A stretch of 64,000 bases of DNA from Octopus vulgaris (taxonomy: Eukaryota), in NCBI GenBank assembly GCA_951406725.2, contig OX597818.1:16678001-16742000 (forward strand), given 5' to 3'. The notes beneath the pieces are model-generated. The model had not been told where the DNA came from, made no database searches, and saw only the letters and a program-made list of their open reading frames with translations. The stretch's first letter is position 1, and every line of letters starts with the position of its first letter. Shown here piece after piece: positions 4,133-64,000 of the stretch. Position numbers and translations under genes: made by a program.

Positions 4133-4530
4133 TCTTTACTTGTTTCAGTCATTTGACTATGGCCATGCTGGGACATCACCATGAAAAATTTTTAGTTAAA
4201 TGAATTGACTCCAGTACTTATTTTGCTTTAAGCCTGGCACTTATTCATGGTCTCTTTTACCGAACTGGTAAATTATGCAGGCATAAACACACCAATGCTG
4301 GTTGCCAAATGATGATTGGGGATAAATAAACACACACACAACTGGTTTTTTTTAGTTTCTTATTTCTTTATTGCCCAGAAGGAGCTAAACATAGAGGAGA
4401 TAAACAAGGACAGAAAAAAGGATTAAGTTGATTACATTGACCCCAGTGCGTAACTGGTACTATACCTGAGGCTATAGAAGACACTTGCCCAAGGTGCTAC
4501 ACAGTGGGACTGAACCTGGAACATGTCAGT
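4133..4530 (-). mobile_element. tRNA-derived SINE family A, decayed, with an embedded Meta-like SINE tail (~4355-4460)
   Basis: Reverse complement of the family A tail (ttttacttgtttcagtcatttgact...) and of the head (agaagacacttgcccaagg...gggactgaacc). Confidence 0.7.
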
Positions 4531-8955: not shown

Positions 8956-9294
8956 AGACAAAGGTTTGGTCCAGCTAGCCTTTTTTTGATCGACTGCACA
9001 CATCAGCTAGTGTACACATATGCCTGTCAGATTATACTTTCTATAACAAAGGTGAAGTGAGCACTTTTATTTTTTATACCACAAAATAATCAAAGGATAT
9101 ATATATATATATATATATGTGTGTGTATATATATATATATATATATACATACATATATATAATATAAAAATATAAAAGTGCTCATTTCACCTTTGTTGTT
9201 ATAGAATAGGGTAGAATCTGATATGTATGTGGGTATACCAGCTGGTGTGTGTGTGCAGTCAACTAAAAAGGCTAACTTGATCAAGCTTTTGTCT
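8956..9294. repeat. Foldback: ~125-bp inverted arms around a (TA)n/(TG)n spacer
   Basis: 8956-9078 is a diverged reverse complement of 9163-9294 (e.g. aacaaaggtgaagtgagcacttttat / ataaaagtgctcatttcacctttgtt). Confidence 0.8.
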
Positions 9295-13959: not shown

Positions 13960-14430
13960 GCATGCTTGCTTCCTTTCGGTTTAGTCTTCACAAATTTACT
14001 GAATCCAAGACCCAGTTTTCATCAACATGCAGCATCACACTTTCTACAGAAGCATTGTACAGCCTACTGAGTACTCTGGTGGAGAAACCATTTGTTACCA
14101 GTGAAGTTAATAGCTTCTTGAATATTTTCCATCCTGTTCTTACTCTGACTACTAATCTCTGAGAACACTGACCTCCACAGCTAATTTGGTCTTCTTGGTA
14201 ACAGAAGTTACCAACTTCATTTACAGAGCTTTCCAGGTATTTGAGCAAGTTTTTATGATGTGTGCTCTTACTGTTTACTGCTGCTGTGTATCAGATACAT
14301 ACAGTTCTATCTTTATTCACCTTACTGTCATCTCACTACACCTCTTGTACTTCCATGAGAGTACACTGGGCATACTGTATGGTATTTCTATCTACTTCCT
14401 TTCTGCATACTGAGTCAGACCTAATATATA
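13960..14430 (-). pseudogene. Decayed RTE-clade LINE reverse-transcriptase C-terminal fragment
   Basis: ORF 13988-14248: ...NFCY..ISCGGQC....RVRTGWKIFKKL...LSRLYNASVESVMLHVDENW resembles the RTE post-RT pattern F.YLG...R...AW..F..L...K..LY...V..V.LYG.E.W. Confidence 0.65.
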
Positions 14431-15042: not shown

Positions 15043-15047
15043 ATAAT

Positions 15048-15333
15048 AATTGCAGCGTGGAAGGTGTTTATAAGCCATTTAAGAAACACACAATTTAATT
15101 TGTCAAAATATTTTCATCGCTTTGAAACCGCGACAGCACAAAGTTTTGTCAGTGAACAGGTCGCAGTCTCAAAGCGACAAAAATATTTTGACAAATTAAA
15201 TTTAAATGTTGAAGTGAATCTAACGGTTTTGTGTGTTTCTTAAATGGCTTATAAACACCTTCCATGCTGCAATTGTTTTCTTTCCAGCACACGATCTCAG
15301 ATCAAGTCACTTGCTATGCAAGTACATCTCCGT
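15048..15333. repeat. Foldback of a Penelope-like pLTR-type repeat
   Basis: 15048-15134 is an inverted, internally deleted copy of 15160-15274. It contains a hammerhead-like motif and is flanked by TA-rich DNA. Confidence 0.7.
15145..15195 (+). ncRNA. Minimal type I hammerhead-like motif with G3/C8 core swap (degenerate copy)
   Basis: TTTGTCA-GTGAACA-G-GTCGC-loop-GCGAC-aAAA-ATATTT-TGACAAA: stems I and II pair and stem III is palindromic. G12 is A in this arm but G in the inverted arm. Confidence 0.5.
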
Positions 15334-19338: not shown

Positions 19339-20357
19339 GTTTAGATAAAACAGAAACGTGAAAATGATTTTACTTCATTTATACGATCTGTCGCTGTCTC
19401 TTGCATGGGCAGGCAGGCTGTCTCCTGAAAAGTCACACAAACTGCTTCCTGTACAGTCATACAAACTGCTTCCTGCACGTCTCCTGCATGTTGTGCAACT
19501 GTATATTTATCTGCACTAAATTAGTCTTCGGAATACTATTTTATAACATAAAAGAGAATATATCTGTTCATCCATGTTAGATTGTTCCATGTACATATTC
19601 AAATAGCGTCCAGCTTAGGCTGAAGCTGTGTGTGTAGTATTTCTATTTGACTGCAGTAAGTTTCCAGAACACTCTTTTAAGATATTAGTCACCCCACATA
19701 AAAAAAAACAAAACAAAAACCTACCCATTTGATCCATATTAGATTGGGTGGTCCTGATGATTTTACTGCAACTGAACAACTCAGATGTGAAGCAGAAGTG
19801 GAGCTTGTTTTCAGATGAGCAGATTGAAACGTGTCGAGTTTAATTAGAACAGATGTCCACATCTAGATGATTGATTGTTGAGCTTTGATGTAAATCATCA
19901 TGCTGGATATTTTGTATATTTAAACGTTCAATGGCTGCAACAAAAGAGTTGACCAGGGAAGCTCAAAGATAACAATAAAGCAATTTAGTGCCATTGTCTT
20001 ACAATAAATGTTTCCCAAGTCCCAAGAGGATATTAAGAATTATTATTTCCTTCCTGCTGATGTGAGATGTGCTGAAAACCATTGCAGTTACACATGTCTG
20101 GGATATCTAACCCCTTTGCTTACTAGTTCAATGAATAGTTTGTTCAGTTGATTAACCAACTGGATGCTCATACATTGAAATCAGCTGTGGGGTTCATCAT
20201 ATGTACCACACTTTGTTAATTAATTATTTTGAACCTTTGTTAATTGATTATTTTGAAATAATTAGTTTCCAAAATCTCAAAGTTGTTGAGGAACAGGAGA
20301 AAATATACTCAATACAAAGTGTAGAATGCAACTATATTTATTCAACTATTTATTAAA

Positions 20358-20585
20358 GGCGGCGAGCTGGCAGAGTCGTCAGCACGCCGGGCGAAATGCG
20401 TAGCCGTATTTCGTCTGCCGTTACGTTCTGTGTTCAAATTCCGCCGAGGTCGACTTCGCCTTTCATCCTTTCGGGGTCGATAAATTAAGTACCAGTTACG
20501 CACTGGGGTCGATATAATCGACTTAATCCGTTTGTCTGTCCTTGTTTGTCCCCTCTGTGTTTAGCCCCTTGTGGGTAGTAAAGAT
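20358..20585 (+). mobile_element. tRNA-derived SINE with Meta-domain-like core (young, CpG-rich)
   Basis: A box tggcagagtcgt, B box gttcaaattcc, central gcctttcatcctttcggggtcgataaattaagtaccag; flanking direct repeat tatatttattcaact at 20333-20347 and 20589-20603. Confidence 0.85.
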
Positions 20586-21745
20586 ATATATATTTATTCA
20601 ACTGTTTAAACATGGTTGCCCTTGCATACAAGCTTGTCCCTTGCAACGCTCTACAGCTGCTGAGAATCCCTGATCTTGTGGGCTCGTAAGTGCTGGTACC
20701 ATGTAAAAAGCACCTGTACCAGTGCTGCGTAAAAGCACCCAGTACACTCTGTAAAGTGGTTGGTGCTAGGAAGAGCATCTAGCCATAGAAACCATGCCAA
20801 AACAGACATGGAGCCTGATGATGATGATTATGTGCGTGCGTGCATGAGGATCACTATCATACAAGTGATGTTCATTTTCAGTCTTCTGTGAAAAACATGT
20901 CTAGCCAAGGGGAAATGTTACCTTGCTTGTAAACAGATGTGGCTTAGCAACAGGAAGGGCATCTGGGTATAGAAAATCTACCCCCACAAATTCTGCCTCA
21001 CCCATGCAGTCATAAAAATGTGAACACTTTAAAATGATGATTCACACTACAACATGGAGTATCGGAATTACTCTATCAGCTCTGACAGAAATCAATGATT
21101 ATAAATCAGTAATTACTGCCTGAGCCAATCCAAAAATCATGAAACTCAGAGTTGCAGCTTAAGGATCAGTGAAAACACACACACACACACTTCACTTCTC
21201 CAACAGCTAGTATTATTAACCTGTTATAATGTTAGAGCCAACAGTGCTGAGAAGCAGACATCTTATCCATTTGACCTTTCTGACTTTTCAGCTGCCAAAA
21301 CTAATTACAAAGATCCTAATCAAATTGTTCCCATTTTATTGTTTTCAACCTAAACCTCTTTGTTCACACACATGCATGCTCTCTCTTTTCCCAATTCTCT
21401 CTCCCCCTCTCTCTTGGTTGCAGGCTAGCAACAGTTTCTCTCAAATCCACTCCTCCCTCATTTCTAGCACCTGTGTGTCCTTCCCCCCTCCTACAGTTAC
21501 AGCTGCTCTTGTAGCAGGTGAGAAAGGCTGAGAATTAACCTGTCAACTATGATAGTATTTCAAACAGCTTATCCCTGGTCTCTTGTGACACATCTCAGCA
21601 GCCTAATCCACTCTCCCCAAACAGGCAGGAGATACAATATAATCAGACTTCCATCAAAAATAAACTGGTGTTTGTTTCTTATTTGTTACAAATCCTATAC
21701 GTTCATTTTTGTGGTGCTTTATATATTGTTTTTAAGTGTCTTTAT

Positions 21746-22556: not shown

Positions 22557-23704
22557 TAACACACACACACACACACAGACACACATTCTCCTGTTAGTCT
22601 CAAAGTATAAGGGTCTCATGGTCAATAGCTGTTAGATTACTCACACACAATTGTTTCCAGTGGTGAAGGCTTTTGTAGGACCAGCCATACTCTTTGGAAA
22701 TGGTGATAACAGATATATACATACAATAATTTTATCGGAGCACTAACTCTGGGGTTTACCATACATGCATGCATTCATACATGCGTGTGTGCACTGGAGC
22801 ACACATAAGAAAATATGCAAATAAATATATATATATATACACACACACATGAATTTGTATGGGTATGAAAATGCAATGCAAATGTATACATAGTATATCC
22901 TCAGGTTGATATGGTGTCTATATATTTGCAGTCTCAGTTTATAAACAAGGTATATAATGAAGTAACACACACACACACCTAGAGAAAAGTCAGTGTGGCC
23001 AGTTACAATAATACTTGAAACTGATTGGGTAGGAGAGTTTGAGGTGAGTCATAGCATTGCTCTTTTGACTGACTTTACTATGTAAATGTTATACATGTTT
23101 CTCTGCCTGATTCTCCCTCTCCCTCTCTCAATTCTTCCCCTTCTCTTCTCCACACCTCCTGCCTAGCTTTTGTTTCATATGCTTTGTTGTTCCAATCTAG
23201 CTGAATGCTAGACATCATCACAATCACCATAACCATCAGCTTCATCAAATACATTGACCACCTCCATTAAATCCCTCTGAGATCCTACAGGCTGCTAGAG
23301 CTATCAATAATGGATTTTATTTTCTCTCATATTAGCTACCATGTAGTATGAGGTTTTCTTTCCTTTTTTTGTAAAATTTTTATAAGGGATAAGGTGTGGC
23401 TAAAGATTTCTGTGATGTTCATGTCTCTCCTAAAGGTATTGGTAATACAAGTCTAATGATTTCCTCTGAGAATTTAGACCAGATGAAAACTTAACCCTAC
23501 TATAAATAATAGCTAATTCTCCCTCAAATCACAGACTAACATTAAAAAATATATATTCAGAGAATAACATCTTTGATTATAGGTCTGCTTGATCAAGGCT
23601 GGCTAAGGACTAAACAACAGCAAGAACAACAATTGGATGATGAAAATAATGAGGAGAGTAATTTTAAATTTCAGTTGTCTGAGCTGGTTACCTAAACGTT
23701 TTAT

Positions 23705-24455
23705 CACAATGAAGGGTAAAGATCCAGAAACCATGGTCTACTGGTTTTCCAGGCTGGAGGGGAGTGATTCACCCCCTTACTCTCAATATATCGGACACAG
23801 GTTTTGTGTTGTTAACCAGCTGGAAAAAACGTTTTCCTGGGGTTAAAATGTAGTAACATACTTCTTTATAGGACAACCATGTTATAGTGGGACCTCCCCC
23901 CTAAAAAAAAAAAAACCCCAACAAAATGTTACCATCTAATATTGCCACTACTTATATCTCATTTAGAGATTTTAGAACTAGCCATTTTGCTCATTATAAA
24001 CAACAAAATGGTAGTAACATAGTTCTGTATTGAATAGCCATGTTGAAGTAGCAACCAACATTACTTTTCAGTATTATCACTACTTACATCTCTTATAGAG
24101 ATTTTAGAACTGGCTACTTTGCTTGTTGCCAAATCAGCAGCTGAATATCACTTGTATTTCTATATATTGCGAGCTAGGATGAATGACTGCCATGTCTAGC
24201 AAACAGGTGTCCAGTACTGATAAAGGGAAATACCCTGAAATCAGACTGCTATACTGGTTTATCACCACTAGATGGTAGGGGTTCGCTCCCCTGCTCACAA
24301 TATGTCGGACATAGGTTGTGTCTTTAACCAGTTGGAGATGTCCTCCTGGGGTTAAAAAAATAGTAGTAACATAGTTCTGTATGTAACAGCCATGTTGAAG
24401 TGGCAACTAGCATTACTTTTACTACTTATATCTCTTATAGAGATTTTAGAACTAT
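23705..24455 (+). repeat. Tandem hammerhead-bearing repeat (units ~23705-23985, partial 24008-24115, 24190-24455)
   Basis: Repeated blocks tagtaacata...gccatgttgaagt...tctcttatagagattttagaact; homologous to 62896-63175. Confidence 0.8.
24211..24257 (+). ncRNA. Type I hammerhead-ribozyme-like motif (G8->A variant)
   Basis: CCAGTA-CTGATAA-AGGG-aaata-CCCT-GAAA-tcagactgcTA-TACTGG. The sister unit at 23709-23744 keeps ATGA and GAAAC-CATG-GTC-TACTGG. Confidence 0.65.
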
Positions 24456-24539
24456 CTACTTTACTTATATATACACAATAGTAGATGCATAAATACACAT
24501 ATAGAGACTAATGTATAAACTTACACATATATACCATAA

Positions 24540-27500
24540 GGACGATTCTATGTAAACCAGGAATTTTGAAACCCACCATCTCAGATTTTCACCAAATTTT
24601 GACCAGTTCCTATCAGTAAAAACAGAAGCAGTGCAAAATTTCAGGCTCCAGCTCCCAATGGTTCAAAAGTTATGACAATTTGAAATTCAGCTCAAATCAC
24701 CAGTTTTTAAGCCTGCAATGCCCTTCTTGAATTTCAATGTTGCAACAAATAATGTAATAACTTTTAATCCACTTGGACTATTTTTCTGAAAATTTGTACC
24801 TGACCATTTTTTTGGGGTGCTGAATCTCAATGTGAAAAGAAGAATGTATTTCTCATGGCAAAGTGCTTGTTTTCTTGAATCAAAATGAAAACGCTTCACC
24901 ATTTTCCCCCAACGCTGCTGTGTACTCAAAGCCAAATTCCCAGAAGTGCTCAAAATCTTACACCTTCAAAATGTTTTGCACATAAACTAGATATAATCTT
25001 TTACTTGTGTGTGAAGAATCTCAGTGGTACTCTCAAAACATCAAATGTTATTATCATTCATCTAAGAAGCATAATTTTTGAATTTTTCTCAAAATCAATT
25101 GTTGTGTCAGAAAATTGATTGCGTTTGACTAGTCAGTTAAAAAGAATCAATGCATCCAGCAGTGGTGGCAGATCACGATCCAAGAGGTAATAATGCAACC
25201 AATATCATTTTCAGGCTTAATATCACTTACATGTAACATTTCTAAGTCATATTAATCTTGTTGTGACTGAGATTTTGTAACCTCCAGTCCACACCAAATT
25301 TTCATAAATTCTAGGAATGTTTATACCATGATGAAACTCTGCACACAATATCATGTACTTTGTATCAGTAAAGTTTGCATGCCATCTTTTTCAACATTTT
25401 GCTTTGTATGGTGTTGTTCTTCCAGAAATATTGTTATCAGTTACTTCTGAGCAGCCAATATTTTCCAAAATATGTTGGTGCAATTTTGAAAAGAGCTCGA
25501 ATTTTCACTATATTTTGGTCTATCCACCTTCAGCAAAATTGCTGCCAAGAGAAAACTACACCAGATATGAAGCGCTCATTTTTGTTTTGAAACAACAGTA
25601 AATTTCAGTCGCATATATCAGACAAATTTTCAGACCAGCAGTTTCATGAGGAAAGAAAATTAGGGGGTCTGTTTCATTCAATAACTTCTCATCACTTGGC
25701 TATTTCAATTCAGCGCCCTGAAAGTTGGTGTAAAATCTTGAGCCTAGTATTGCAGCAACACTCACTTTCAAGCAGTATGAAAGCATTTTTTGGCAAGCAC
25801 TAGATCTTGAAATCATGTACAATCAATGGAAATTCAAAACTTACTAGAAGTTCTGAAGTGTACTATATTCTCAAACACTTGTAAGTATGAATTGCACACA
25901 ATGGATAGAATTATTTCTCAAAAAAATCAACATACATCCAAATAGAGCCATGTAAAGTCAAACTCTAAAAAGTAGGCACATTCATAAGCAAAAATGTGTG
26001 TTTACCAGTTTGAAAAAGAGCAAATTTTAAAATTTGGGTTAACAATATAGCAGCAAAGGAATTGGGAAAATTTCCCTTTTTTGAAAAATAAAATCTTCTG
26101 GTCCTTTTGGGAAAATTTGCTTAAATTTTTGATAAAAGGACACATTTCTGTCAAAGTATGCCTTCATGTGAGTCACGAGCATGTCTCTTGCTTTCTAGAA
26201 TATGGGCAGAAAAATAGTGTGTCAAACTTGAAGGATTAAATGATTGTGCTCCCATATCTCAATTCAAACTGAATTGACAGAAGGTTCGACAATCCTTTTA
26301 CAAACAACAAAATGCCAAACATTCACATGGAAAGTATATCCTTGATCATTTCAGTACCATTTTTTGTCGCATGCTACTGTAGAGCAGTCTGCTGACAATT
26401 GAGGAGGCTCAGTTCTAGCAACCACATATGTCAGTGGTACCCAGCATAAATCATCTCTTGTTGGCCAGCTGAATGAATGATTTGGAATGTGCAGATGAAT
26501 AAATTCACAACATTTGCCTCCCAATCTATTTGCACAGCCATGCCAACCCAGTGTCGTTCATCATATATGCAGAGAAGGTATTGAGAGAATTTGATATCAC
26601 CTGTATTAAGTTTGCGCTGAATGCATTTGCCCTGAAAGTCAAACTCGTGCAATACTCTCATCTGACAAGTGTTTCATCTTGATTGTGTGGGTCTGAAGTT
26701 GGAGCAAACTGGTGATAACTTCTGCTGCCTGGAATAGTTTTGGCTAAAGTGAATCTTTCAGCCAGTTCATTTCGGGTGGAGTCCATTGCTGCTGAAGGAA
26801 TGCACACAAATGTGATTCCTTGAATTGAACTTTCACCAAATTCAAACGTCTGTTTTGCAGACAGAATTTGAGAAGCATTTGGTTGCTGCAGGCTGGCTCT
26901 TGCTGTCAATCTTATTGCAGTCCCTCCTATTCTGCCACAAGGTGACTTACCATGACTGGTGGGAAAAAAGTTCCACGCACAACTGATTGAGAAATCTGTA
27001 GAGTGATAATAAAGATTGAGAAAATGTGTATGATTCTTATACTGAGCAGCACAACCATCTGAAAAATAATGAATGACTTCAGTTGAAGGATTCAGCGTTT
27101 CCTTTCTTTGATCTCTTGTCTCCTTCAGAACCTTGTGAACACAACCAACACCATGATCAAGATCATCAGAAATGAGGCAAATGGAAGAATTGTCAAGCAC
27201 AGTTTGATAGCAAAAATAGACAACTACAGGATAGAGTGAGCACTGGGGCTTATTCCAGTGGTGTCCCTGGATTTCATCTTGCACAACAAATGAATAATTT
27301 TTAGCGAAGTCTCCCAAAACTTTGGCCTCATTTGGCCCTATCATTTCTTTGAGGTGTTTCAAGTAAGTTGACTGGGCACAAGTAATGAATGAGTGCAAGG
27401 CAATTTTGTCAATTTTTTTCAGTCAGAAGGTTAACAAATTCTTGGAAAGACAGAGACACAGTGACAAGTTCAGTTCTGCCAGTTGTTGTCCATTGCTTAA

Positions 27501-28284
27501 ATTGAATCTCATGCCCTGATGATCAAAACACAGACGAGCTGAAGAAAAGTCATTAAAATCACAAACATGGCTTCCCTTTTCATTACAAGGAAACATTATG
27601 CTGACCAAGATGAATGCTTACACATGATGAACTGACAATAACACAACTCCAACCAACACCTGAATCAGCTGTACTGATATGACCATTGTGAGAAAAGAAT
27701 TTGAAGAAAACAGGAAATGACAATTTCCTCTGACTGTTATGTTTCCTGTGATTGTGGTTACAAAATATCAAATAAATGGCTCAACTTTGTGGTTTGTAAC
27801 TTTTGCTGTCTTGAGAGTACCATTGAGTTTTTTCACACATGAGTCCAGTTTGTGCAAAAAGTTATAAAGCTGTAGGATTTGGGCACTTCTGAGAATTTAG
27901 ATTTGAGTACATAGCAGTGTCGGGGGGAAATGGTGAATTCTTTCCATTTTGATTGAAGAAAACAAGTACTTTGCCATATGAAATACACTTTTTTCTCTTC
28001 AGATTGAGATTCAACACCCCAAAAAATGCTCAGGTACAAATTTTCAGAAAAATAGTCCATGTGGATTGAAGGTTATTATATTATTTGTTGCAGCATTGAA
28101 ATTCAAGATGGCCGCTACAGGCCTAAAAACTGGTGATTTGGGCCAAATTTCAAATCACAAGTTTTGAACCATTGGGAGTTGGGGGTCTGAAATTTTGCAC
28201 TTTTTCTGTTCTTACTGATAAGAACAACTGGTCAAAATTTGGTGAAAAATAAGATGCCTGTCCCACATTTATATGGAATTACCC
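24540..28284 (-). mobile_element. Sola2-like DNA transposon (internally deleted, ~3.7 kb)
   Basis: ~0.5-kb TIRs (24540-~25060 and ~27780-28284), termini GGACGATTCTAT / GGGTAATTCCAT, 4-bp TSD ATAA, and a transposase remnant inside. Confidence 0.8.
26390..27420 (-). pseudogene. Sola2-like DDD transposase, C-terminal half, frameshifted
   Basis: Motifs DFAKNYSFVVQDEIQGHHW, YFSDGCAAQYKN and WNFFPTSHGKSPCGRIGG (expected third D is G), then IPGSRSYHQF; frameshifted YLLCIYDERHWVG and SFSWPTRDDLCWVP. Confidence 0.75.
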
Positions 28285-29181: not shown

Positions 29182-30188
29182 AGACAGAGTATATGTATGG
29201 ATTAATGGATGGATGGGCAGACTTTTTTTTTATATATTATTTCAATCTTTCCTGCAAAGAAGGGACTGGTATCTTAACAAAAAGACGAAGTTCTATTGTT
29301 GGAACTAGGATAACAAAAAAACAATAAATGTTACTCTTTTGCTTACAGATTGTATTGTAAAATGGTTGTTAGCTGGTTACTTTATCTGAAAACTCTTTCT
29401 GAAATTGTTATTGAAATATTGACAAAGTTCCCCACTAATTATTGCCATGAATGTGAATTTTTAATCATGGGTAGATAAGTTGCAGGTTTTGGAGCAGTTG
29501 TCCATATTCTCCTTCTCATTGATTTTGGAAGAACTATTCACTTCTGCTGTACCTCTATGACTTGTACATAACTTTTGTCTTTCAAGCTTGAAATATCTGA
29601 TGTTGGTCCTAGAAGTTTTGTAAGAACGTTTCTTTGATATGCTTCATATTGATAATGCATCTAAGTATTCATAAACAGCAGCATTGTCTCTATTTATCCC
29701 AGAACAGTTTTTTTTGTTGGGTGGCAGTGTCTTATCAACAACCTCATGCTGTGTTGAGAGATAATACCTTGATGACACTTTTGGGCAGCTGCTGATCACA
29801 TGTAATCTTTTATAGAAATGTGACATAATCCATATTTTCAGTTGCATTGCAGGGGTGTAAGGGCTTCACTCTTACTTTTGTTTGTTAGGTATTTTGTAGT
29901 TATCTCCTGCTCTTGTAATACAAAAGTATAGCTTTTGAAATGTGACTAGAGAAACTACACTTCGTGGTAATATTAGCATTCCCCTTAAATTTATGGAAAG
30001 CATAGCCATGCATTACCTTTTTGAGGTATGCAGTATTTATCATTTATGTCTTTGATGAGGCATGCTAGTCCAGTGTCTGGAACAAAATTAAGAAGAAATT
30101 TTGATGGAGGGTTTTAAATTCAATCACTTAAAAACAGGAAATTTGTATCTTAGGACTAATGGTGGTCTGAGGTATGTTGGTATCAAAA

Positions 30189-30419
30189 GGCGGCAAGCTG
30201 GCAGAAACGTTAGCATGCCAGGCGAAATGCTTAGCAGTATTTCGTCTGGCGCAACGTTGTGAGTTCAAATTCCGCCGAGGTTGTCTTTGCCTGTCATCCT
30301 TTCGGGGTCGATAAATTTAGTACCAGTTACGCACTGGGGTCGATGTAATCGACTTAATACCTATGTCTGTCCTTGTTTGTCCCCTCTATGTTTAGCCCCT
30401 TGTGGGTAATAAAGAAATA
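30189..30419 (+). mobile_element. Meta-like SINE inserted in the end of a TTAA/piggyBac-type MITE
   Basis: Same family as 20358; TSD ggtatcaaaagg at 30179-30190 and 30420-30431. The host resumes as ...aaaagggttaa. Confidence 0.85.
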
Positions 30420-30591
30420 GGTATCAAAAGGGTTAAGATTACATTTGTCTGGAATATTGATTCACTAACATTACAATTCAATTAATAGCCCATTTCATTG
30501 ATCAAACAGAACAGTTATTGTCAAAACTGGCAAAAAGCTATTCTCTTTTACTTGTTTCAGCCATGCAGCTGTGGTCATGCTTTTACGTTTA

Positions 30592-32212
30592 TAGTGGTAC
30601 CATTTGATTTAAGAACGCTAGTATACTAATACTAAAATGGCATTTCTTATATATTCAACTTGTAAATTGTGAATTAAGATGTATATCAAAATAAAGAAAA
30701 TTTCACGAGCTTTAATATGGTATACAACTTTACAGCATAAAATTAATCAACATATTAATTTTAAATTAAAAATAAACTTTATTTTGCATAATTTACGTTG
30801 CCACTTCATTTAAGGATTTGCAAAATTCAATTTTTTTTTTTTTGCCTTATTGACTAATATAAAGGTAGGATAATTTGCAGACTGTTACAATTTTTAAGTT
30901 ACTTAATAGTTGTGGTGGGTAAGAAACAAAACTTGACATCAGAAACCAGAGAGAAGGTTTGTTCAGCTTAATAGGCTGAAATGTGTTCATATAAAGCTAT
31001 TTCAAATGATGTTGGATGCTCTAAAACGGCTGTCTACAATGCTGTCCATTTTTGTAAAGAAACTGATTATATAGATCACTCTCTTCCTGGGCAACCAAGA
31101 AAAACAATGCCAAGAATGGATAGATACATTTATAGACTGACCCTAAAAAATGCAAAATGACTGCTGTTGACATTTTAAAAGAAATTCAGCAAAAATATGG
31201 ACTTACCATTGGAGTATCCACCATAAAAAATTGTCTCAAAGAATTTGAGCTTCTAGGAAAAGTCTCTCACAAAAGCCATACTTTTCTTTAAAAAATCGAT
31301 ATGCCCAAATACAGTTCACAAAAGAGCATTTGAATTGGAGTCCAGCAGATTGGTCGAATGTGTTGTGGTCAGACGAGTCAAAGTTCAACTTGTTTGGCAA
31401 TGATGGCAGGAAGCATGTAAGAAGGTGTATAGGCAAAGAATATCATCAAAAATACATCCAACCTACAATTAAGCACGGTGGTGGAAGTGTGATGGTGTTG
31501 GGGGTGCATGTTTGGAAAAGGCGTTGGTCCTATAATCTGAATCAAGGGCATTATGGATAGTAAGTCCTATCTAGAAATATTGGATAAGACTATGCTTCCA
31601 TATGCCCAAAAGCATTTGGGCTGACCTTGGACTTTCCAGCATGACAATGACCCAAAGCACACCTTGCACCTACTGAGAAATTACATTAGGTCTAAGAGGG
31701 TTCTGTTGATGCAGTGGCTGGTACAGTTGCCCGACCTAAATCCCATCAAAATTCTTTGGCAAAGGTTGGGTAGAGCTGTGCAAAGTAATAAATCAAAGAA
31801 TAAGGATTTTTTTTTTAAAACATTATTAACCAAAATTGGATAAAAAAATCTCAGGAACAGTGATAAAGGATCTGAACAATTCTGTTTCACAGATGCAAAG
31901 CTGTATTGAGTAATTTTGGATAACCAACCAAATACTGATTGTGTGAGCTTATTATTGCTTTTTCGTTGATCTTAATAAACTTTTTAAAGCAAAAAAATAA
32001 AATTTTACAAATCATTCTTAAATTAAATGGCGCTATAAATTACGATAATTAAGATTTATTTTTAATTTAAAATTAATATGTTGCATAATCACATTAAAGC
32101 TTGGGAAATTTTATTTTGATATACATCTTAATTGACAATTTACAACTTGAGTATAGAAAAATTGACATTTTAACATATAATACTAGCGTTCTTAAATTAG
32201 ATGGCACCACTG
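30592..32212 (+). mobile_element. Tc1-family (DD34E) transposon, near full length, decayed
   Basis: TA TSDs; ~250-bp TIRs starting (C/T)AGTGGT.CCAT.T.ATTTAAGAACGCTAG. Confidence 0.9.
30912..31938 (+). pseudogene. Tc1-like transposase with stops and frameshifts
   Basis: WSNVLWSDESKFNLFG, KHGGGSVMV, FQHDNDPKH...QW..QLPDLNPIKILW. There are 34 residues from the second D to the expected E position, which is K here. Confidence 0.9.
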
Positions 32213-32249
32213 TATGTTTGTATGTGTCAAAAAAAGAAAAAAGTGTGTG

Positions 32250-33573: not shown

Positions 33574-34733
33574 CCCTTTCGTTACCAAACCGCCCAAAGC
33601 CGCCCGAAAGAAAAATTTTGGCTAATGTGACCAAACCGCCCAAACCCGCCCATATTTACCTATTCATATTTAAATGAGAATATCAGATCAAATCTCTTTA
33701 GTACATTCGTGAAAACACGTATTATACTTCGTAAACAGTTCAACTACAGTTTTGTACAACAATCAAAGTGTAATTTTAATTCCGTGAATTTTGGGAGATT
33801 TTTTTCCGAAATTTGTTCCTATTGTGTTTTTAAAATTTGTAATTCTGACAAAAAATGGATACGAATTTCATTATATCAAGCAGCGAGTCAGAATTCGAAG
33901 GATTTTCTACTGAAGACCTTCATAAATCTAACTCTATGACTGAAAAAAAAAAGCACGCGGTATTTGATAATGAATCTGATGTTTCATTTTCCGAAAGTGA
34001 AAACAGTGATTCCGAGAGCTCCGACAGCAATAAAGAAAATGAATTGGCACCTGAATGGAGTGAAAATTTAAAAACTGTTTCTTTCGGTGATTTTTCTGAA
34101 GAAACTGGACCAAGCCACAGACTTTCCCAGGAGAGTAAAGCCTTAGACTATTTCTTTTTACTTTTTCGAATGAGCCTATTTGAAATCATTACGGCGGAAA
34201 CGAACCATTACGCTAAATGTAAACAAAGCGAAAGAAAGGATAGTTAGTGGTTTCCCACAACCTTAAATGAAATTAAGACTATTTTGCCATAAATATTATT
34301 ATGGGTATCAGAAAGTTACCCAGAATAACAAATTCTGTCGTAAAATTTTGTTGTATACCCAATTGAATATTAGCTAATAACCCATTTTCTATAACGATCA
34401 TCATCATCATCATCATCGTTTAACGTCCGCTTTCCATGCTAGCATGGGTTGGATGTTTGAACAAAACGATGTTTGAACAAAATTTTAATAATTGTATATT
34501 TTGTTGAATTTACCTGTATTTACCTTTAATTAGAGTCACTTTGTGACAAAAATTATAGTATAGAATTGGTTGAGAATATTTCATTAAATTATCTTCCAAA
34601 AATCAGATTAATATATTGATAAATAAAAAAGTTATAGTTGTTTAATGAAACCAGACTAAATTTATGATTATGTTAGAAATTAATTGAAACACATAAGGGG
34701 TGTATTTTGGTCAGAAATATAGTAACGAAAGGG
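33574..34733 (+). mobile_element. Internally deleted piggyBac derivative
   Basis: TTAA|CCCTTTCGTTAC ... GTAACGAAAGGG|TTTAA. It carries the transposase N-terminus and a short RTE-tail insertion at ~34396-34460. Confidence 0.85.
33855..34330 (+). pseudogene. piggyBac (PGBD4-like) transposase N-terminal fragment
   Basis: Acidic/Ser-rich N-terminus, then ALDYFFLLF...IITAETNHYAK, a stop, WFPTTLNEIK and frameshifted INIIMGIRKLP; the catalytic core is absent. Confidence 0.75.
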
Positions 34734-40960: not shown

Positions 40961-41432
40961 AATTTTTTTTAAATGATAAAATAAGGTTTTTTCAACATTG
41001 TAAGTTACACAGTTCGTCCCATATGGAAATCACAGAAAACTTCAATAAGCTGACAGCCACCATTCAACTCACTGTTCAGCAACTAAAGTTGCTAAAAATG
41101 CGAATAAAAATCCAAGAAAGTAAGGAATAGAACAGATAAAATATGGACTACAATTATTTCATAGCTAAGACAATGATTGTTATGTAAGTTGCATCATACA
41201 TAGAACTAGCTTAGCTAATCTTCAGGTGCTATTACCTATATGTTGTTTACATTGTTGCATGAAGTTGAACAAATGAATCATCATGGCAAGTTGAAAAAAA
41301 GAAACAAAAAAAAAATGACCAATGAAAGCATTAGAAGGTAGGTTGCCATAAAAGGAAATAAGGAGGGTGTCATAAATGTGTATTTTTATATATATGTGTG
41401 TGTGTGTTTATGTAATGGTTTGGATTAATGAG

Positions 41433-41740
41433 TATATGTTAATTAGTGTGTTAATGTGTTGAGTAAAGCACTAGCACAGTTTGGGCTACCTGGTGTCAGT
41501 TGGGATCGAAACGATCATTGTACAAAATAAAGGCTAATACCAAATCCATCTTCTGGGTACTTAATCAATTATATATACATTATATCAAATTATTATATAT
41601 ATATATATTAACCAGAAGATGGATTTGGTATTAGTCTTTATTTTGTACAATGATCGTTTTGACTCCAACTGTGGATGACACCAGGTAGCCCATCTGTGCC
41701 AGTGCTTTACTCTACACACTAACACATTAATCAATATATA
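41433..41740. repeat. Foldback: ~125-bp inverted arms around a TA-rich spacer
   Basis: 41433-41556 pairs with 41612-41740 (ttgtacaaaataaaggctaataccaaatccatcttctgg and its reverse complement). Confidence 0.85.
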
Positions 41741-41948
41741 CAATGGACATCTTTCAGTTTCTGTCTACCAAATTCACTCCCAATACTTTCGTTGGGCTGA
41801 GGCTATAGTAAAAGACACTTGCCCAAGGTAACACATGGTGGGACTGAACCTGAAACCATGTAATGCAAATTTCTCAACCATGCACCAACACCTGTGCTGG
41901 TATATGTATGTGCATATACATATGGATGACGTTAAACGATGATGATGA

Positions 41949-44043: not shown

Positions 44044-44275
44044 TATTTCTTTACTACCCACAAGGGGCCAAACACAGAGAGGACGAACAAGGACAGACAA
44101 ATGGATTAAGTCGATTATATCGACCCCAGTGCGTAACTGGTACTTATTTAATTGACCCTGAAAGGATGAAAGGCAAAGTTAACCTCGGCGGAATTTGAAC
44201 TCAGAACATAGCGGCTGACAAAATACTGCTAAGCATTTCGCCCGGCATGCTAACGTTTCTGCCAGTTCGACGCCC
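44044..44275 (-). mobile_element. Meta-like SINE
   Basis: Reverse copy of the 20358 family; 14-bp TSD gttgttctcatacc at 44030-44043 and 44278-44291. Confidence 0.85.
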
Positions 44276-45774
44276 TTGTTGTTCTCATACCATCTCCATG
44301 CAAACACTCACTTGTGTCTCTCTTGTCATTCATACTGTGTTCTGTCATTCCTTCCAGAAAAAAAAAAAATCAATTTATGTTTTCTATGAAATCTTATCAA
44401 TTACTGCTAGTGTGTATTTCAAAACATTCCTATAGTTGAAAATTAAACAATGCGGTGGGTGCCTTACTAAAATTCAACTACTTCCTATCACATGAATGTT
44501 ACTTCCTGTCAATTGTCTGAATGTGAGGAAAGTGTCAGTAATATCATATATTAGTAATTTAATACTGTCTGAGACTAATAAGTTGTAAAAAAAGAACGAA
44601 AAAAAGAGTGGGTTGCTTTACAGTTCTTCTTGTATTGTCTCCCCCTAAAAGCCCCAGGGATTCTGTTAAGAGAAAGGTTGCTTACAGCTGTGTTTTATGC
44701 TGTTAAGTGGATGTGAACCTGTATCTCCTAGACATAACATTTATCCTCCAGTTGGGAAGGCTGAGTGAGGCTTGTGGAATTTAGGTGTTCTACTTTATAG
44801 ACAGACATACCAGAAACATCTGCCTTGAGTTTGAACTCATGACCTATGTGCTGGCAGTCCAGTAATTTATATTCTCTCATCCATTTTCTTCCCTGCTTCT
44901 CTTTTTGCAGCATGATTTCAGCACAAATTCTTGCATTTCAAATGCTGCACAAGTTCTGTAGATTCTTGCTATTTGTGAGTGTTGGACTCTCTTTTAAAAG
45001 ATAAGAATGCATCAACTGACTGACAAGTTGTGTTTATCGCAAATTTTACTCCTAGAAAAACAAATTTACTGTTGATTTAAGTTGTGCTGTTGTCCTCTTC
45101 TTCCTTATTCTCTACCACTATCACCACCATCAACTTCACCACTACCATCACTTTATATGATTTATGCCATTTTTTAACAAATATTTTTTAACAGTCACTT
45201 TGAAGTTTTAAACTTGTAACTTTCCATAGAATTGGTTTAGCTCTGACTGACAAAAGAGTAAACAAAACAAACAAAAATGAAAAATAAATAACATTAAAAA
45301 CTAAAAATAAGTAAATAAAATAATTTTCATCTGAGAAATGTTAAGTATACAACCACCACTACCATCATCACCAACATACTACAACTATGACATCAACCAC
45401 TACCACAACAATGACTACTGCTACCGCTTTTACCATCCTCTCCCAAAAAGCACCAAGGCTACTTACAATAACTACAAGCCATATCCACAAGTTGGAACTA
45501 ATCCAAGTTGCATTTGATAAATTAATGTCACTTAGGTGGAATGAAAACCATTTGAGGATTTAATTTTTATATATTCGTATTTTTAAGATACTTCATTCAG
45601 TATATTGTTGTTGTTGTTGTTGCTATTAATATTTTTTATTAATTGTTGTTGTTAGTGTATTTTAAAAATTTTATTGCTTTTTCTTGATATTTGCTTGTTG
45701 ATTTGTACTTAAGAGAATCTTGATCTTTCATTTTTTTAAACATTTTTTCTAAAGTCAGCCATCATATTTAGTTA

Positions 45775-54959: not shown

Positions 54960-54968
54960 TTCTATATC

Positions 54969-55196
54969 TGTTTCTTTATTGCCCACAAGGGGCCAAACAT
55001 AGAGGGGACAAACAAGGACAGACAAGCAGATTAAGTCGATTACATCGACCCCAGTACGTAACTGGTACTTAATTTATCGACCCTGAAAGGATGAAAGGCA
55101 AAGTTGACCTCAGCGGAATTTGAACTCAGAATGTAGCAACAGACGAAATACGGCTATGCATTTCGCCTGGTGTGCTAACGCTTCTGCCAGCTCGCC
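54969..55196 (-). mobile_element. Meta-like SINE
   Basis: Reverse copy of the 20358 family. Confidence 0.85.
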
Positions 55197-60739: not shown

Positions 60740-61068
60740 ACTTTAGTTTAATAAAAAAAAAGAAAAAAGAAAAGGGAAAATAAGTAAATCCTGTTTGAAC
60801 ATTTTGTTTAAAAGGTGTAATTATAGGGCGAAAGCAAAAAGGGAAGTCGTGGTTTTGCCTTGGAGCAAGGCTAGAGGTTGTGTAATAAGTTAATGGTAAA
60901 GGAATACATGGTTTCATCTCGCAGTGAGAGCAAGATGGCCGGCTCATTTGCATTGTAAATATATTCATTTCACATTCATCCTTCATATGTTTCAGCATGT
61001 CTTTATGTTCCTGCATGTCTTTATATGTCCCCTCTGTAATTAGGCCTTGTGCTTGTAATAAAGAATTA
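60740..61068 (+). mobile_element. 3' UTR of a 5'-truncated L1/Tx1-like element (upstream member of a tandem)
   Basis: Diverged direct repeat of ~62547-62895, ending tgtcccctctg...aggccttgtgcttgtAATAAAgaat. Confidence 0.7.
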
Positions 61069-62908
61069 AGCTAGCAAGCCACACCCACTTGTTGTTTTGA
61101 AGAACTCTAGCCAAATTTTTGAGCAAAGCCACCATTGTTGGGTGGTAGTGAATAATTGAGAAAAACGAAAGTTATGCAGAAGCTACTGGAAGTTGAGTTC
61201 CCCTAGACCCAAGTGTGCTGAAACAAGAGATGGTAGCATGCAAAAGTGAGCTGATAGAAAAATATAGTAGTATGGTGGAGAAAGAAGGGTCAAATATAAA
61301 ACTGACCCTAACAGCGGACGAAAAAGCAAAAATAGAAAAGGAGACAGTAATATTCAGAACATTTTCAAATAAAAACAAAAGAATTGAAAAAGCACCACAG
61401 GAAGAAATAGAAGAAATTTTGGAAAGACAGATAGGAGACAGCATAGCATTCTTTATGAGAGGAAAGAGTTATGCGTTTATAGTGGTAACCTTTGTATCAG
61501 AAGAGGAGGTGGCAAAATCCTCCAACAGGATGATACAGGGAGAGAAATGGACATTGATGCCAAACTGTTTGGAAAAACAAATTGTGAGAATTAAGGTGGG
61601 AAGAATCCCACCATCGATAGATCTAAAGTAGATAATAGCAGTGATTTTTTTTTATTCGGGGATAAGGAAGGAAAGTGAAGAGGTGAAGATGGGCATGATA
61701 AGCTGAACCCAACAAGTGAAGTGGTGAGGTTACAGATTAGAGATGATTTGTGCAGTGAGCCAGAAATATTACAATGAAATACCTGTAACTTTGGAGCTAC
61801 CAAATGAAGAAAAGCTGGAGATAATGTTTGAGGGGAGACCCCCAAAGTGTTACAAATGTGGTGAAAGAGGGCACTTGAGAAAGAAATGCCCTAGAGCAGC
61901 AGGGGAAATTGTAGAGGAGAGTATTCAGGAGAATATAATGGTGGAGAAACAGCAGAAACAGATAACAGAACAAGAAAGGAATTTTGTAGAGGTGAAAGCA
62001 AGAAAAAGAGAGAGGCGGAAGTCACCAACGATAGTAGAACTGGAGTGCAAAGCGATGGAAGAGGTAATCCAACATATGACGAGAAATGGGGAAGATTCAC
62101 CAGTAGGATCACCAGGAAAGAACTTACAAGTACAAAAACATTCAGACCCACAGACACTCAAACACACAGACATCCAACCGCACAGAAATATAGAGAAACA
62201 GATACAAGATGTCTTAGAACCACAGAAACCTAAAAGCATAGACACACAGATGAAACATGCAGAATTACAGTTAAACAAACACACAGACACAATCACAGGA
62301 CAGCCAAGAATTACAGAAATACAGAGAAAAAAAACACAAACATGCAAGTGACAAACAGAAGGTTTATAGTGAAAAATAGGACACGCAAAAGTTAAAAGAA
62401 TTTCAAAATTGAAAGACATCATGAAAGAGTGAATCCACTGGGGCAGGAGGTGGATGTTGAACCTCGTGCCTCAGTGGTGAATTATGGAAAAGGAGAATTG
62501 GTAAGTTGTTATTTCTCTTTAAAGACTATAAAAACTGAGAAAAACCTTTAGTTAAACTTTTTATTGGAGACAAAAAAAAAAAAGGAAAAGCAAGTAAATT
62601 TTGTAACTATTGAATGAACAAGTGTTTAAAATTTTTTTTTAAATGTAAGGTGGAAAGGAAAAGGGAAGTCTCAGTTTTGCCTCTGAGCAGGGCTGGAAAT
62701 TGTTATTTAAAATGTAGGTTTAAAAAGGAGGGAAAAAAAGGATTACGGTTTCATCTCAGAGCGGGACCGAGATGACTGTCTCATTTTCATTGTAATTTAA
62801 TTCATTTTACATTCATTCTTTCAGGTATTTTTTGTTCCCACATGTCTGTGTATATCCCCTCTGTGTTTAGGCCTTGTGCCTGTAATAAAGAATGCAGCTA
62901 GCAAGCCA
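61069..62908 (+). mobile_element. ORF1-only (HAL1-like) L1/Tx1-related non-autonomous retroelement, ~1.8 kb
   Basis: 13-bp flanking direct repeat agctagcaagcca (61069-81 and 62896-908). Short 5' UTR, gag-like ORF, no EN/RT ORF, 3' UTR ending in AATAAA. Confidence 0.7.
61152..62351 (+). pseudogene. Gag-like ORF1 (N-terminal SYAEA motif, RRM-like region, CCHC zinc knuckle)
   Basis: ORFs 61215-61631 and 61743-62351 share one frame, joined across stops at 61194, 61629, 61704 and 61725; knuckle CYKCGERGHLRKKC. Confidence 0.8.
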
Positions 62909-63175
62909 AGCTACACCAGACTGATAAAGAGCAATGACTCTGAAACTAGCCTCTGGTTGCTGGTTTTGCTGGGTGGAGGTGCTTATCTACCCTGCTTGAA
63001 AACATAAGGATACATTATGCTTGTGTCACATGGCCAACTGGAAACGGTATTTACTGGGGCTAAATAGCAGTAGCATTCTTCCCTTTCCTGGAATTGCCAC
63101 ATTAAGTTGGCAACAAACCATCAATTTATCATGCTGCTTCTGCATAAGTCTCTCTTAGAGATTTAGAACTGCAAT
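62896..63175 (+). repeat. Hammerhead-bearing repeat unit (same family as 23705-24455)
   Basis: Shared blocks ctagcaa..ccag(t)actgataaag, ccaactggaaa..ctggggctaaatagcagtagcat, gccacattaagttggcaac and ctcttagagatttagaact. Confidence 0.7.
62916..62956 (+). ncRNA. Type I hammerhead-ribozyme-like motif (degenerate)
   Basis: CCAGA-CTGATAA-AGAG-caatga-CTCT-GAAA-CTAG-CC-TCTGG; G8->A and U16.1->C relative to the canonical core. Confidence 0.6.
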
Positions 63176-64000
63176 ATTTCTAATTTTACATATATATATA
63201 TATATATTAGGATAATGTAATATGTATGTATTTGGTAACAGCAAAATCTAAAAATCTAATATATATTTCTGAGATGGCTGTTGATAGATTACAATTACAC
63301 AGTAATGACTGTAATAGAAAATTGAAATTAAAATGTGCAATCTTTTATTTCCATTCAGAGAAAAAGAAAAGGAATTTGAAATGAATTTCTAAAATTGTAT
63401 GTGGTGGGTGTGCATGGTTGTGGTGGAGAACAAGGCTAGAATTGTACAAATATACAGGATGAAGGGAAATTGAGAAGGATGCTGAGTCCTAGGAATTTGT
63501 TGTTAAGTGACTTGGATGGATGTCACTCGATGAATGCAAGGCCATTAAAGCCTCTGAAGTGTAATATATTTTAAAGCGAACAGGAAACAAGGGAAGTATA
63601 TGGGAATGGGTGAGGTGAAATATTATACGCATATACACACGCACACACACAGTGAGAGAGAAAAAGAGAATAATTGTTGATTTTTAAATGGGACATGATG
63701 AGGGAAAGAGAGAGAGTGGTGGTGGTGGTGGTGTTGGGGGTGGAAATAGTCAGATTAATAATTACATTGAGAATAAAAATAAAATACTTAGAATAAGTGG
63801 TTGAGTTAGAGATTTTTAAAGGGTTACAACTGTGATAGAAAAGATGTATGAGAATGTTGAAAGTGTAGCTATTCATGCCCTTATTGAAATATATTTGTGT
63901 GTGTGGGTACGGTTTGTTTAGACCCAGGTCAACAACTATAATGGAGAAAACTGGTGATCAAAGGCTATCTTGTCTTTTTATATATCAGGCATTGTATCAT

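Follow-up and report, generated by a model that had tools for sequence, protein, structure and literature searches.

Decayed copies of a likely non-LTR retrozyme in a 64-kb window of the Octopus vulgaris genome

A repeat carrying remnants of type I hammerhead ribozymes is present in the window analysed here, a stretch of 64,000 nucleotides of Octopus vulgaris DNA (contig OX597818.1). Its copies are best explained, at a probability that we put at roughly 0.68, as decayed copies of a non-LTR retrozyme with a likely monomer of 342 nt, the active ancestor of which would have been a rod-shaped RNA circle and would likely have been copied by a Penelope-like element (PLE). The repeat is likely a previously undescribed cephalopod non-LTR retrozyme family, of a known type. 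The window has a GC content of 32-42% and is rich in microsatellites and repeats; a profile search of it with nhmmer recovered four pieces of the repeat (A, A', B and C) and no fifth copy, and no relatives were found in phages, plasmids or prokaryotic genomes; the family is known here from four pieces in one window. The pieces and their ribozyme regions are listed below, with positions counted from the first letter of the window.

23709..23991, forward strand: copy A, truncated at its 5' side within the hammerhead core and reaching the common 3' end
23709..23744, forward strand: hammerhead remnant A, with A6-U7-G8-A9, GAAA, a palindromic stem III and a GUC triplet
24002..24124, forward strand: copy A', the final third of the unit, running directly into the spacer
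24125..24195, forward strand: spacer of 71 nt, the predicted left arm of the rod, likely belonging to the monomer
24196..24466, forward strand: copy B, with extended stem I, hammerhead and body; its right end adjoins TATATATA
24211..24257, forward strand: hammerhead B, with A in place of G8, a U.C mismatch at 15.2/16.2 and a CUA triplet
62896..63185, forward strand: copy C, with a long extended stem I, hammerhead and body, and no spacer
62915..62957, forward strand: hammerhead C, with A in place of G8, C in place of U16.1 (GCC triplet) and a CTAG palindromic loop

The earlier note on this DNA had described three hammerhead-like stretches, and all three lie where it had placed them; the piece A' and the 71-nt spacer are additional to these. 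The bodies of the pieces are homologous: in each of the six pairings, among them C with B, C with A and A with B, the score was above those of all 2000 shuffles. Copy A' differs from B at 10.7% of positions with a single gap, A from B at 19-21%, and B and C are 24.7% apart. While the 5' ends of the copies are variable, the 3' stop falls at about the same position in A, B and C, and A' continues through this common 3' end into the spacer and then into B. Both free right ends (B and C) adjoin (TA)n, the run beside C being no more than about 10 nt away, against a background of 2.4% of window positions in a comparison made post hoc. The family combines 5'-truncated partial tandems, a common 3' end and microsatellite targets. 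No flanking direct repeat or target duplication was seen at the boundaries of A to B among repeats of at least 11 nt. The period of about 280 bp proposed in the earlier note was not borne out, as the distance from ribozyme to ribozyme is about 511 nt and the unit ends are spaced 132 and 342 nt apart; the 280 bp correspond to a truncated unit, and the locus, which had been taken for a tandem repeat, is not called by Tandem Repeats Finder. Copy A also carries an insertion of about 40 nt near 23895-23935, made of runs of C and A, in which the word CAACAAAATG occurs and reappears at the A-A' junction (24001-24013); this is possibly a template-switch scar. Immediately 5' of A, at 23682-23705, there are inverted matches to the A body (16 nt at 81% and 12 nt at 92%), which could be due to chance or be the scar of an inverted insertion.

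Hammerheads B and C were read as CCAGTA-CTGATAA-AGGG/CCCT-GAAA...TACTGG and CCAGA-CTGATAA-AGAG/CTCT-GAAA...TCTGG, respectively, and their stems are as first claimed. The claim of three CTGATRA...GAAA cores holds for these two and fails for A, in which positions 3-5 are A-C-A instead of C3-U4-G5 and the 5' strand of stem I is missing, only the 3' strand being kept. Stem II of A had been given as GGGT/ATCC, which is off register; in register it reads AGGG/TCCA, with an A.A mismatch first and one G.U pair, pointing to decay and not to covariation. In B and C, helix I has 6 bp with an internal loop and an extension, helix II has 4 bp, and the 10.1-11.1 base pair is A-U in place of the usual G-C. 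Helix III, of 1-2 bp with a small palindromic loop, is intact in A, where GAAAC-CATG-GTC was confirmed as a perfect 8-nt palindrome with a stem III of two pairs; C has one mismatch, and B one mismatch and a larger loop.

Covariation of the stems, judged from three partial rows only, amounts to less than had been claimed. There is one clean double change, from G-C to A-U in stem II of C, and beyond it one stem I pair was lost from both strands and stem III has two distinct palindromes. In the MAFFT alignment stems I and III of C were set out of register, and apparent covariation taken from it would therefore be inflated.

A relaxed type I descriptor (CTGANRA, stem II of at least 4 bp, GAAA, stem I of 5 bp), the relaxation of which was chosen after the sequences had been seen, matched exactly B and C when both strands of the window were scanned; the mean was 0.005 matches in 200 shuffles, and none of the 200 reached two. 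The canonical type I core (CUGANGA, GAAA, NUH) gave no match in the window. The comparison with Rfam that had been suggested gave no hammerhead match either, over the whole window at E 1 or, at E 10, in three sub-regions and on 101-nt pieces, and its output for the window consisted of microsatellite-driven miRNA matches and noise only.

No copy has an intact hammerhead. Because the core is broken in each of them, A lacking positions 3-5 and B and C carrying C3.A8, every copy in the window is predicted from its sequence to be catalytically dead. A hammerhead with C3.A8 and no compensation is expected to be inactive. G8 has been proposed as the source of the general acid (PMC6155905), and the natural A8 variant described in Schistosoma is accompanied by U3 (PMC4209133); a literature search for activity data on G8A yielded nothing relevant. 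For B, the predicted hammerhead fold (-3.6 kcal/mol) also competes with an alternative that sequesters the core (-14.8 kcal/mol).

The run A'-spacer-B spans 1.36 monomers and contains one intact junction, and the monomer is likely the 342 nt at 24125-24466, spacer included, with 39% GC. The spacer pairs with two of the bodies: with that of B, random pieces did as well in 7 of 1000 cases, and with that of A in 3 of 500; in a second run the figure was 2 of 400 for each of them. Pairing with A' was weak (47 of 500 random pieces as good) and with the C body absent (180 of 500). The spacer occurs once in the window; the flanks 3' of B and C, considered as decayed spacer, scored no better than 25 and 30 of 150 random pieces, respectively, and did not pair with their own bodies. 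The 342-nt monomer is predicted to form a rod of five stacked helices and 79 pairs, with the ribozyme region at its tip. As a circle its predicted minimum free energy has a z of about -3.8, with 64% of bases paired and none of 100 shuffles better, compared to a z of -2.4 with the spacer removed; among 40 random 342-nt tiles the one that reached -3.8 was this locus itself. The rod has no plus-strand bias (z of -4.5 for the minus and -4.0 for the plus strand), and its arms hold three G.U against six A.C. Short ORFs overlapping the repeat had no Pfam match, and the unit is non-coding, head-to-tail and within 150-450 bp.

The earlier note had proposed a retrozyme-like family with Penelope pseudo-LTRs as the alternative, and the former is supported by the helix sizes, the GC content of 39-42%, the self-paired 342-nt monomer and the lack of a neighbouring RT/GIY-YIG ORF. 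Metazoan canonical hammerheads are described as having a helix I of 6 bp, a helix II of 4 bp and a helix III of 1-2 bp with a palindromic loop, whereas the minimal hammerheads of PLEs have a long helix II, a short helix I, an extra base after A9 and G10.1-C11.1 (PMC4209133). The motif in the octopus is of the canonical and not of the minimal form seen in PLEs. Non-LTR retrozymes have units of 150-450 bp with less than 50% GC, and those of the mussel Mytilus galloprovincialis are self-paired and of 350-390 bp (PMC7229834, Cervera and de la Pena 2020). As far as that account describes the metazoan elements, the octopus repeat resembles them in its mollusc host, unit size, GC content, non-coding nature, canonical type I architecture and predicted highly self-paired circle, and departs from them in having no intact ribozyme, 1.36 tandem units plus stray copies, and A10.1-U11.1 (PMC7229834).

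The strongest competitor to this reading, which we nonetheless regard as unlikely, is that an autonomous PLE left the pieces as pseudo-LTR ends truncated at their 5' side, and that the spacer arose as an inverted DNA fragment during insertion and did not evolve as an arm of an RNA. In its favour, it is a hallmark of PLEs to form partial tandems that end at a common 3' position, to lie next to inverted copies and to target (TA)n; the rod has no strand asymmetry and the spacer was seen once; type I topology, a weak palindromic helix III and 5'-truncated partial tandems sharing 3' ends are likewise found in the PLE pseudo-LTR hammerheads described by Cervera and de la Pena in 2014 (PMC4209133). 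Unlike those, however, the octopus copies have a helix II of 4 bp instead of 7-8, a helix I of 6 bp plus extension, no extra base between 9 and 10.1, no G10.1-C11.1 and no nearby RT-GIY-YIG ORF (PMC4209133). No RT or GIY-YIG Pfam domain was found in the 58 window ORFs scanned (8 of 28 ORFs of at least 100 aa and 50 of 71 of at least 62 aa around both loci), a scan that short or heavily broken remnants would escape; a zinc knuckle was the sole Pfam match above the cut-off in these ORFs, and no host gene was identified. Moreover, spacer and body agree at 81%, and there are 9 gaps between them in 92 nt, far above the single gap of A' with B; had the spacer arisen at the same time by simple inverted duplication, so many gaps would hardly be expected. 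Three motifs of the family had no exact match in the Naiad/Chlamys supplement, and octopus Naiad ends, compared by eye, were unlike the unit. On helix sizes, GC content, ORF context and monomer folding, the retrozyme thus fits better than the pseudo-LTR.

PLE-derived vertebrate retrozymes offer a further comparison, many families of which are monomers or short arrays, as is the case here (10.64898/2026.07.22.740005). In that report eight of nine Xenopus retrozyme elements tested had no cleavage (Li, Clavereau, Pollet 2026), and the octopus repeat is unlike the active vertebrate class, as two consecutive complete ribozymes are absent and no parent PLE was identified (10.64898/2026.07.22.740005). 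The absence of two complete consecutive ribozymes means that the octopus copies count as fossils and not as an active retrozyme; this, the absence of a complete core and of an Rfam match, the A-U at 10.1-11.1, the rod without strand bias, the lack of a target duplication flanking A to B, and the single spacer with no pairing to the C body and little to A' speak against the fossil-retrozyme reading. Within the literature searched no cephalopod retrozyme was found, and octopus elements may still stand in supplementary listings; ribozymes are not mentioned in the text or supplement of PMC13282606, and the available portions of PMC7761336 and PMC10886601 added none.

If the copies are the remains of a retrozyme, we infer an active ancestor, since every copy here lacks a complete core and no hammerhead was reported by Rfam. 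By analogy with known retrozymes, such an ancestor would have been transcribed through tandem units, and its type I hammerhead would have cut its own tandem transcript after an NUH triplet, a step favoured by dimers that pair through the palindromic stem III. The ends would then have been joined by a host ligase to give the predicted rod-shaped circle; cleavage, ligation and circles are modelled on coral, mussel and axolotl retrozymes, as described in PMC7229834. Reverse transcription would begin from one fixed point of the circle and could exceed one turn. A', spacer and B could in this way represent a single insertion for which a circular or tandem template was read beyond one full turn, and A and C separate, shorter insertions; that A' is nearer to B than A is would be predicted by one insertion event. 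Copying back into the genome by a PLE is likely, because right ends lie at (TA)n, a preference listed for octopus Naiad PLEs (PMC8557442 supplement), because PLEs account for 6.83% of O. vulgaris genomic sequence (PMC13282606 supplement), and because one PLE has been shown to initiate internally, at fixed sites, in vitro (PMC11167929).

Another question is raised by the CTGATAA that, as the earlier note had observed, is common to B and C. It is improbable, more so than the pseudo-LTR origin, that CUGAUAA was the family's own core and that it spread with A8 as a non-cutting passenger or through A-to-I editing restoring activity. Both whole-core copies carry A8 while being 24.7% apart, and simulated decay (with transition and GC bias, and with one core lesion in one copy and two in the other) yielded a shared lesion with a probability of only about 0.08. 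This value is low and indecisive, and a family variant, though possible, is not needed to account for the common CTGATAA; copy A has G8, B and C bear other lesions, so that decay is evident, and C3 is kept here, whereas A8 is paired with U3 in the natural Schistosoma variant (PMC4209133). Since three copies cannot fix the tree, parsimony is uninformative on A8. The octopus is an animal with heavy RNA editing. In a more specific and rather far-fetched version, the genomic CUGAUAA would be silent, A-to-I editing in the rod would make A8 an inosine, restore the pair with C3 and trigger cleavage, and the G8 of A would be a fixed edited copy. Engineered editing-dependent hammerheads and the NHH rule have been described (PMC3923133, the accessible text of which is silent on position 8). 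If true, an editing-gated core would be a natural editing-switched ribozyme, of greater consequence than the fossil family.

Copy C lies beside a second mobile element, and the following features were mapped at this locus, together with a SINE-like family that is related to it by its 3' tail.

60756..61068, forward strand: R1, a second, diverged and older copy of the ORF1 element 3' UTR (18.7% mismatch, 13 gaps)
61069..61081, forward strand: left copy of a 13-nt duplicate, an exact match to the outer 5' arm of stem I in hammerhead C; likely a target-site duplication
61082..62895, forward strand: broken ORF1-only non-LTR element with a CCHC zinc knuckle; homology at 61155-62485 and 3' UTR at 62572-62895
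62896..62908, forward strand: right copy of the 13-nt duplicate, in which CTAGCAA pairs 7/7 with 62966-62972
20355-20588, 30186-30419, 44044-44277, 54964-55196 and 4361-4461: SINE-like family of about 235 bp, 86-89% identical

The ORF1 element has four stops in 365 codons and at least one frameshift, is homologous to P0001 over 61155-62485, and carries a zinc knuckle of PF00098 (E 9.7e-6). The long ORF near copy C had an Octopus bimaculoides protein as its sole database match; 251 proteins were related to ORF1 at E 0.001, and no RT or endonuclease domain was found in the 16 relatives scanned. Its look-alikes, which serve as a lead only, are ZCCHC3-like and DUF4283, presumably pointing to an L1/Tx1-type ORF1. 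The 3' tail of the element is common to the SINE family, the last 50 nt of which resemble it, suggesting that both might have had a common LINE partner.

The order at the locus is R1, duplication, ORF1 element, duplication and ribozyme C. Because CTAGCAA extends the outer stem I of C by 7/7 pairing and recurs at the matching place in B (24196, chance about 6e-4), the 13-mer is part of the ribozyme unit; no third copy was found 5' of R1 at up to two mismatches. The ORF1 CCHC knuckle, the non-LTR 3' tail and the long duplication are Tx1-type traits. In crocodilians, Tx1-Mar and SINEU-3 form tandem insertions that sandwich a target-site duplication (Kojima 2015, PMC4494074). The octopus locus is similar to these in that tandem insertions enclose a long duplication inside another repeat, and dissimilar in that the target is a ribozyme repeat, the element is ORF1-only without RT, and one locus is concerned (PMC4494074). 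We offer only tentatively, from one locus, the proposal that the ORF1-only element targets the retrozyme repeat; the lack of a third 13-mer 5' of R1 counts against it, as does a divergence with which LTR-like ends would also be compatible. If genome-wide, such targeting would be a more significant lead than the fossil family.

It was also considered whether the hammerhead unit itself belongs to an element that encodes ORF1 and has LTR-like ends in R1 and R2, which is very unlikely. R1 and R2 do flank the ORF, each ending in CCA, and their 18.7% mismatch is compatible with the four ORF stops if decay was neutral (at 10% divergence, P is about 0.4). Against this, the sequence 3' of R1 has no significant homology to the ribozyme (211 of 2000 shuffles scored equally well, so that it was also rejected as a decayed ribozyme), no R sequence occurs at A, A' or B, the R tail is common to a SINE ending at AATAAAGAA, which is a non-LTR trait, and R1 and R2 differ by 13 gaps in about 310 nt, the ORF keeping one frame over about 1,100 nt. 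Least probable of all is a chance likeness to hammerheads within an unrelated structured repeat, to which the missing canonical core and Rfam match would lend themselves, but which is at odds with two relaxed matches where 0.005 were expected, with A independently providing G8, a paired stem III and GUC at the homologous place, and with a palindromic stem III in two different versions.

Two further candidates were set aside: a Helitron 3' end, considered for a terminal hairpin before CTRR, was ruled out as homology continues beyond CTRR, and a tRNA-derived head was unsupported (ARAGORN, 0 genes).

Several other elements occur in the window. At 24586-28248, beginning 120 nt 3' of copy B, an element is bounded by inverted ends that are 82% identical over about 465 bp and contains a 254-aa minus-strand ORF (26658-27422) with no Pfam match, which by its motifs we take to resemble a DNA transposase. 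Inverted ends of about 250 bp (74%) at 30590-32214 enclose a 103-aa ORF (31249-31560), also with no Pfam match and presumably akin to a piece of a Tc1/mariner transposase. ORF pieces at 33849-34247 and 13988-14290 are assumed to resemble piggyBac transposase and RTE-type LINE remnants; corresponding Pfam matches were not found for them. Long fold-back palindromes at 8956-9294, 15045-15277 and 41432-41741, two of them with microsatellite centres, are probably MITE-like and account for several of the spurious Rfam miRNA matches.

The likely fossil retrozyme described here can be of use for octopus repeat annotation, and will be unsurprising to specialists, because mussels and many other invertebrates carry such elements. 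It would extend non-LTR retrozymes to a likely cephalopod host, with A', spacer and B as putative fossil evidence that a circular template was copied for more than one turn, and the family may serve as a query for finding active members.
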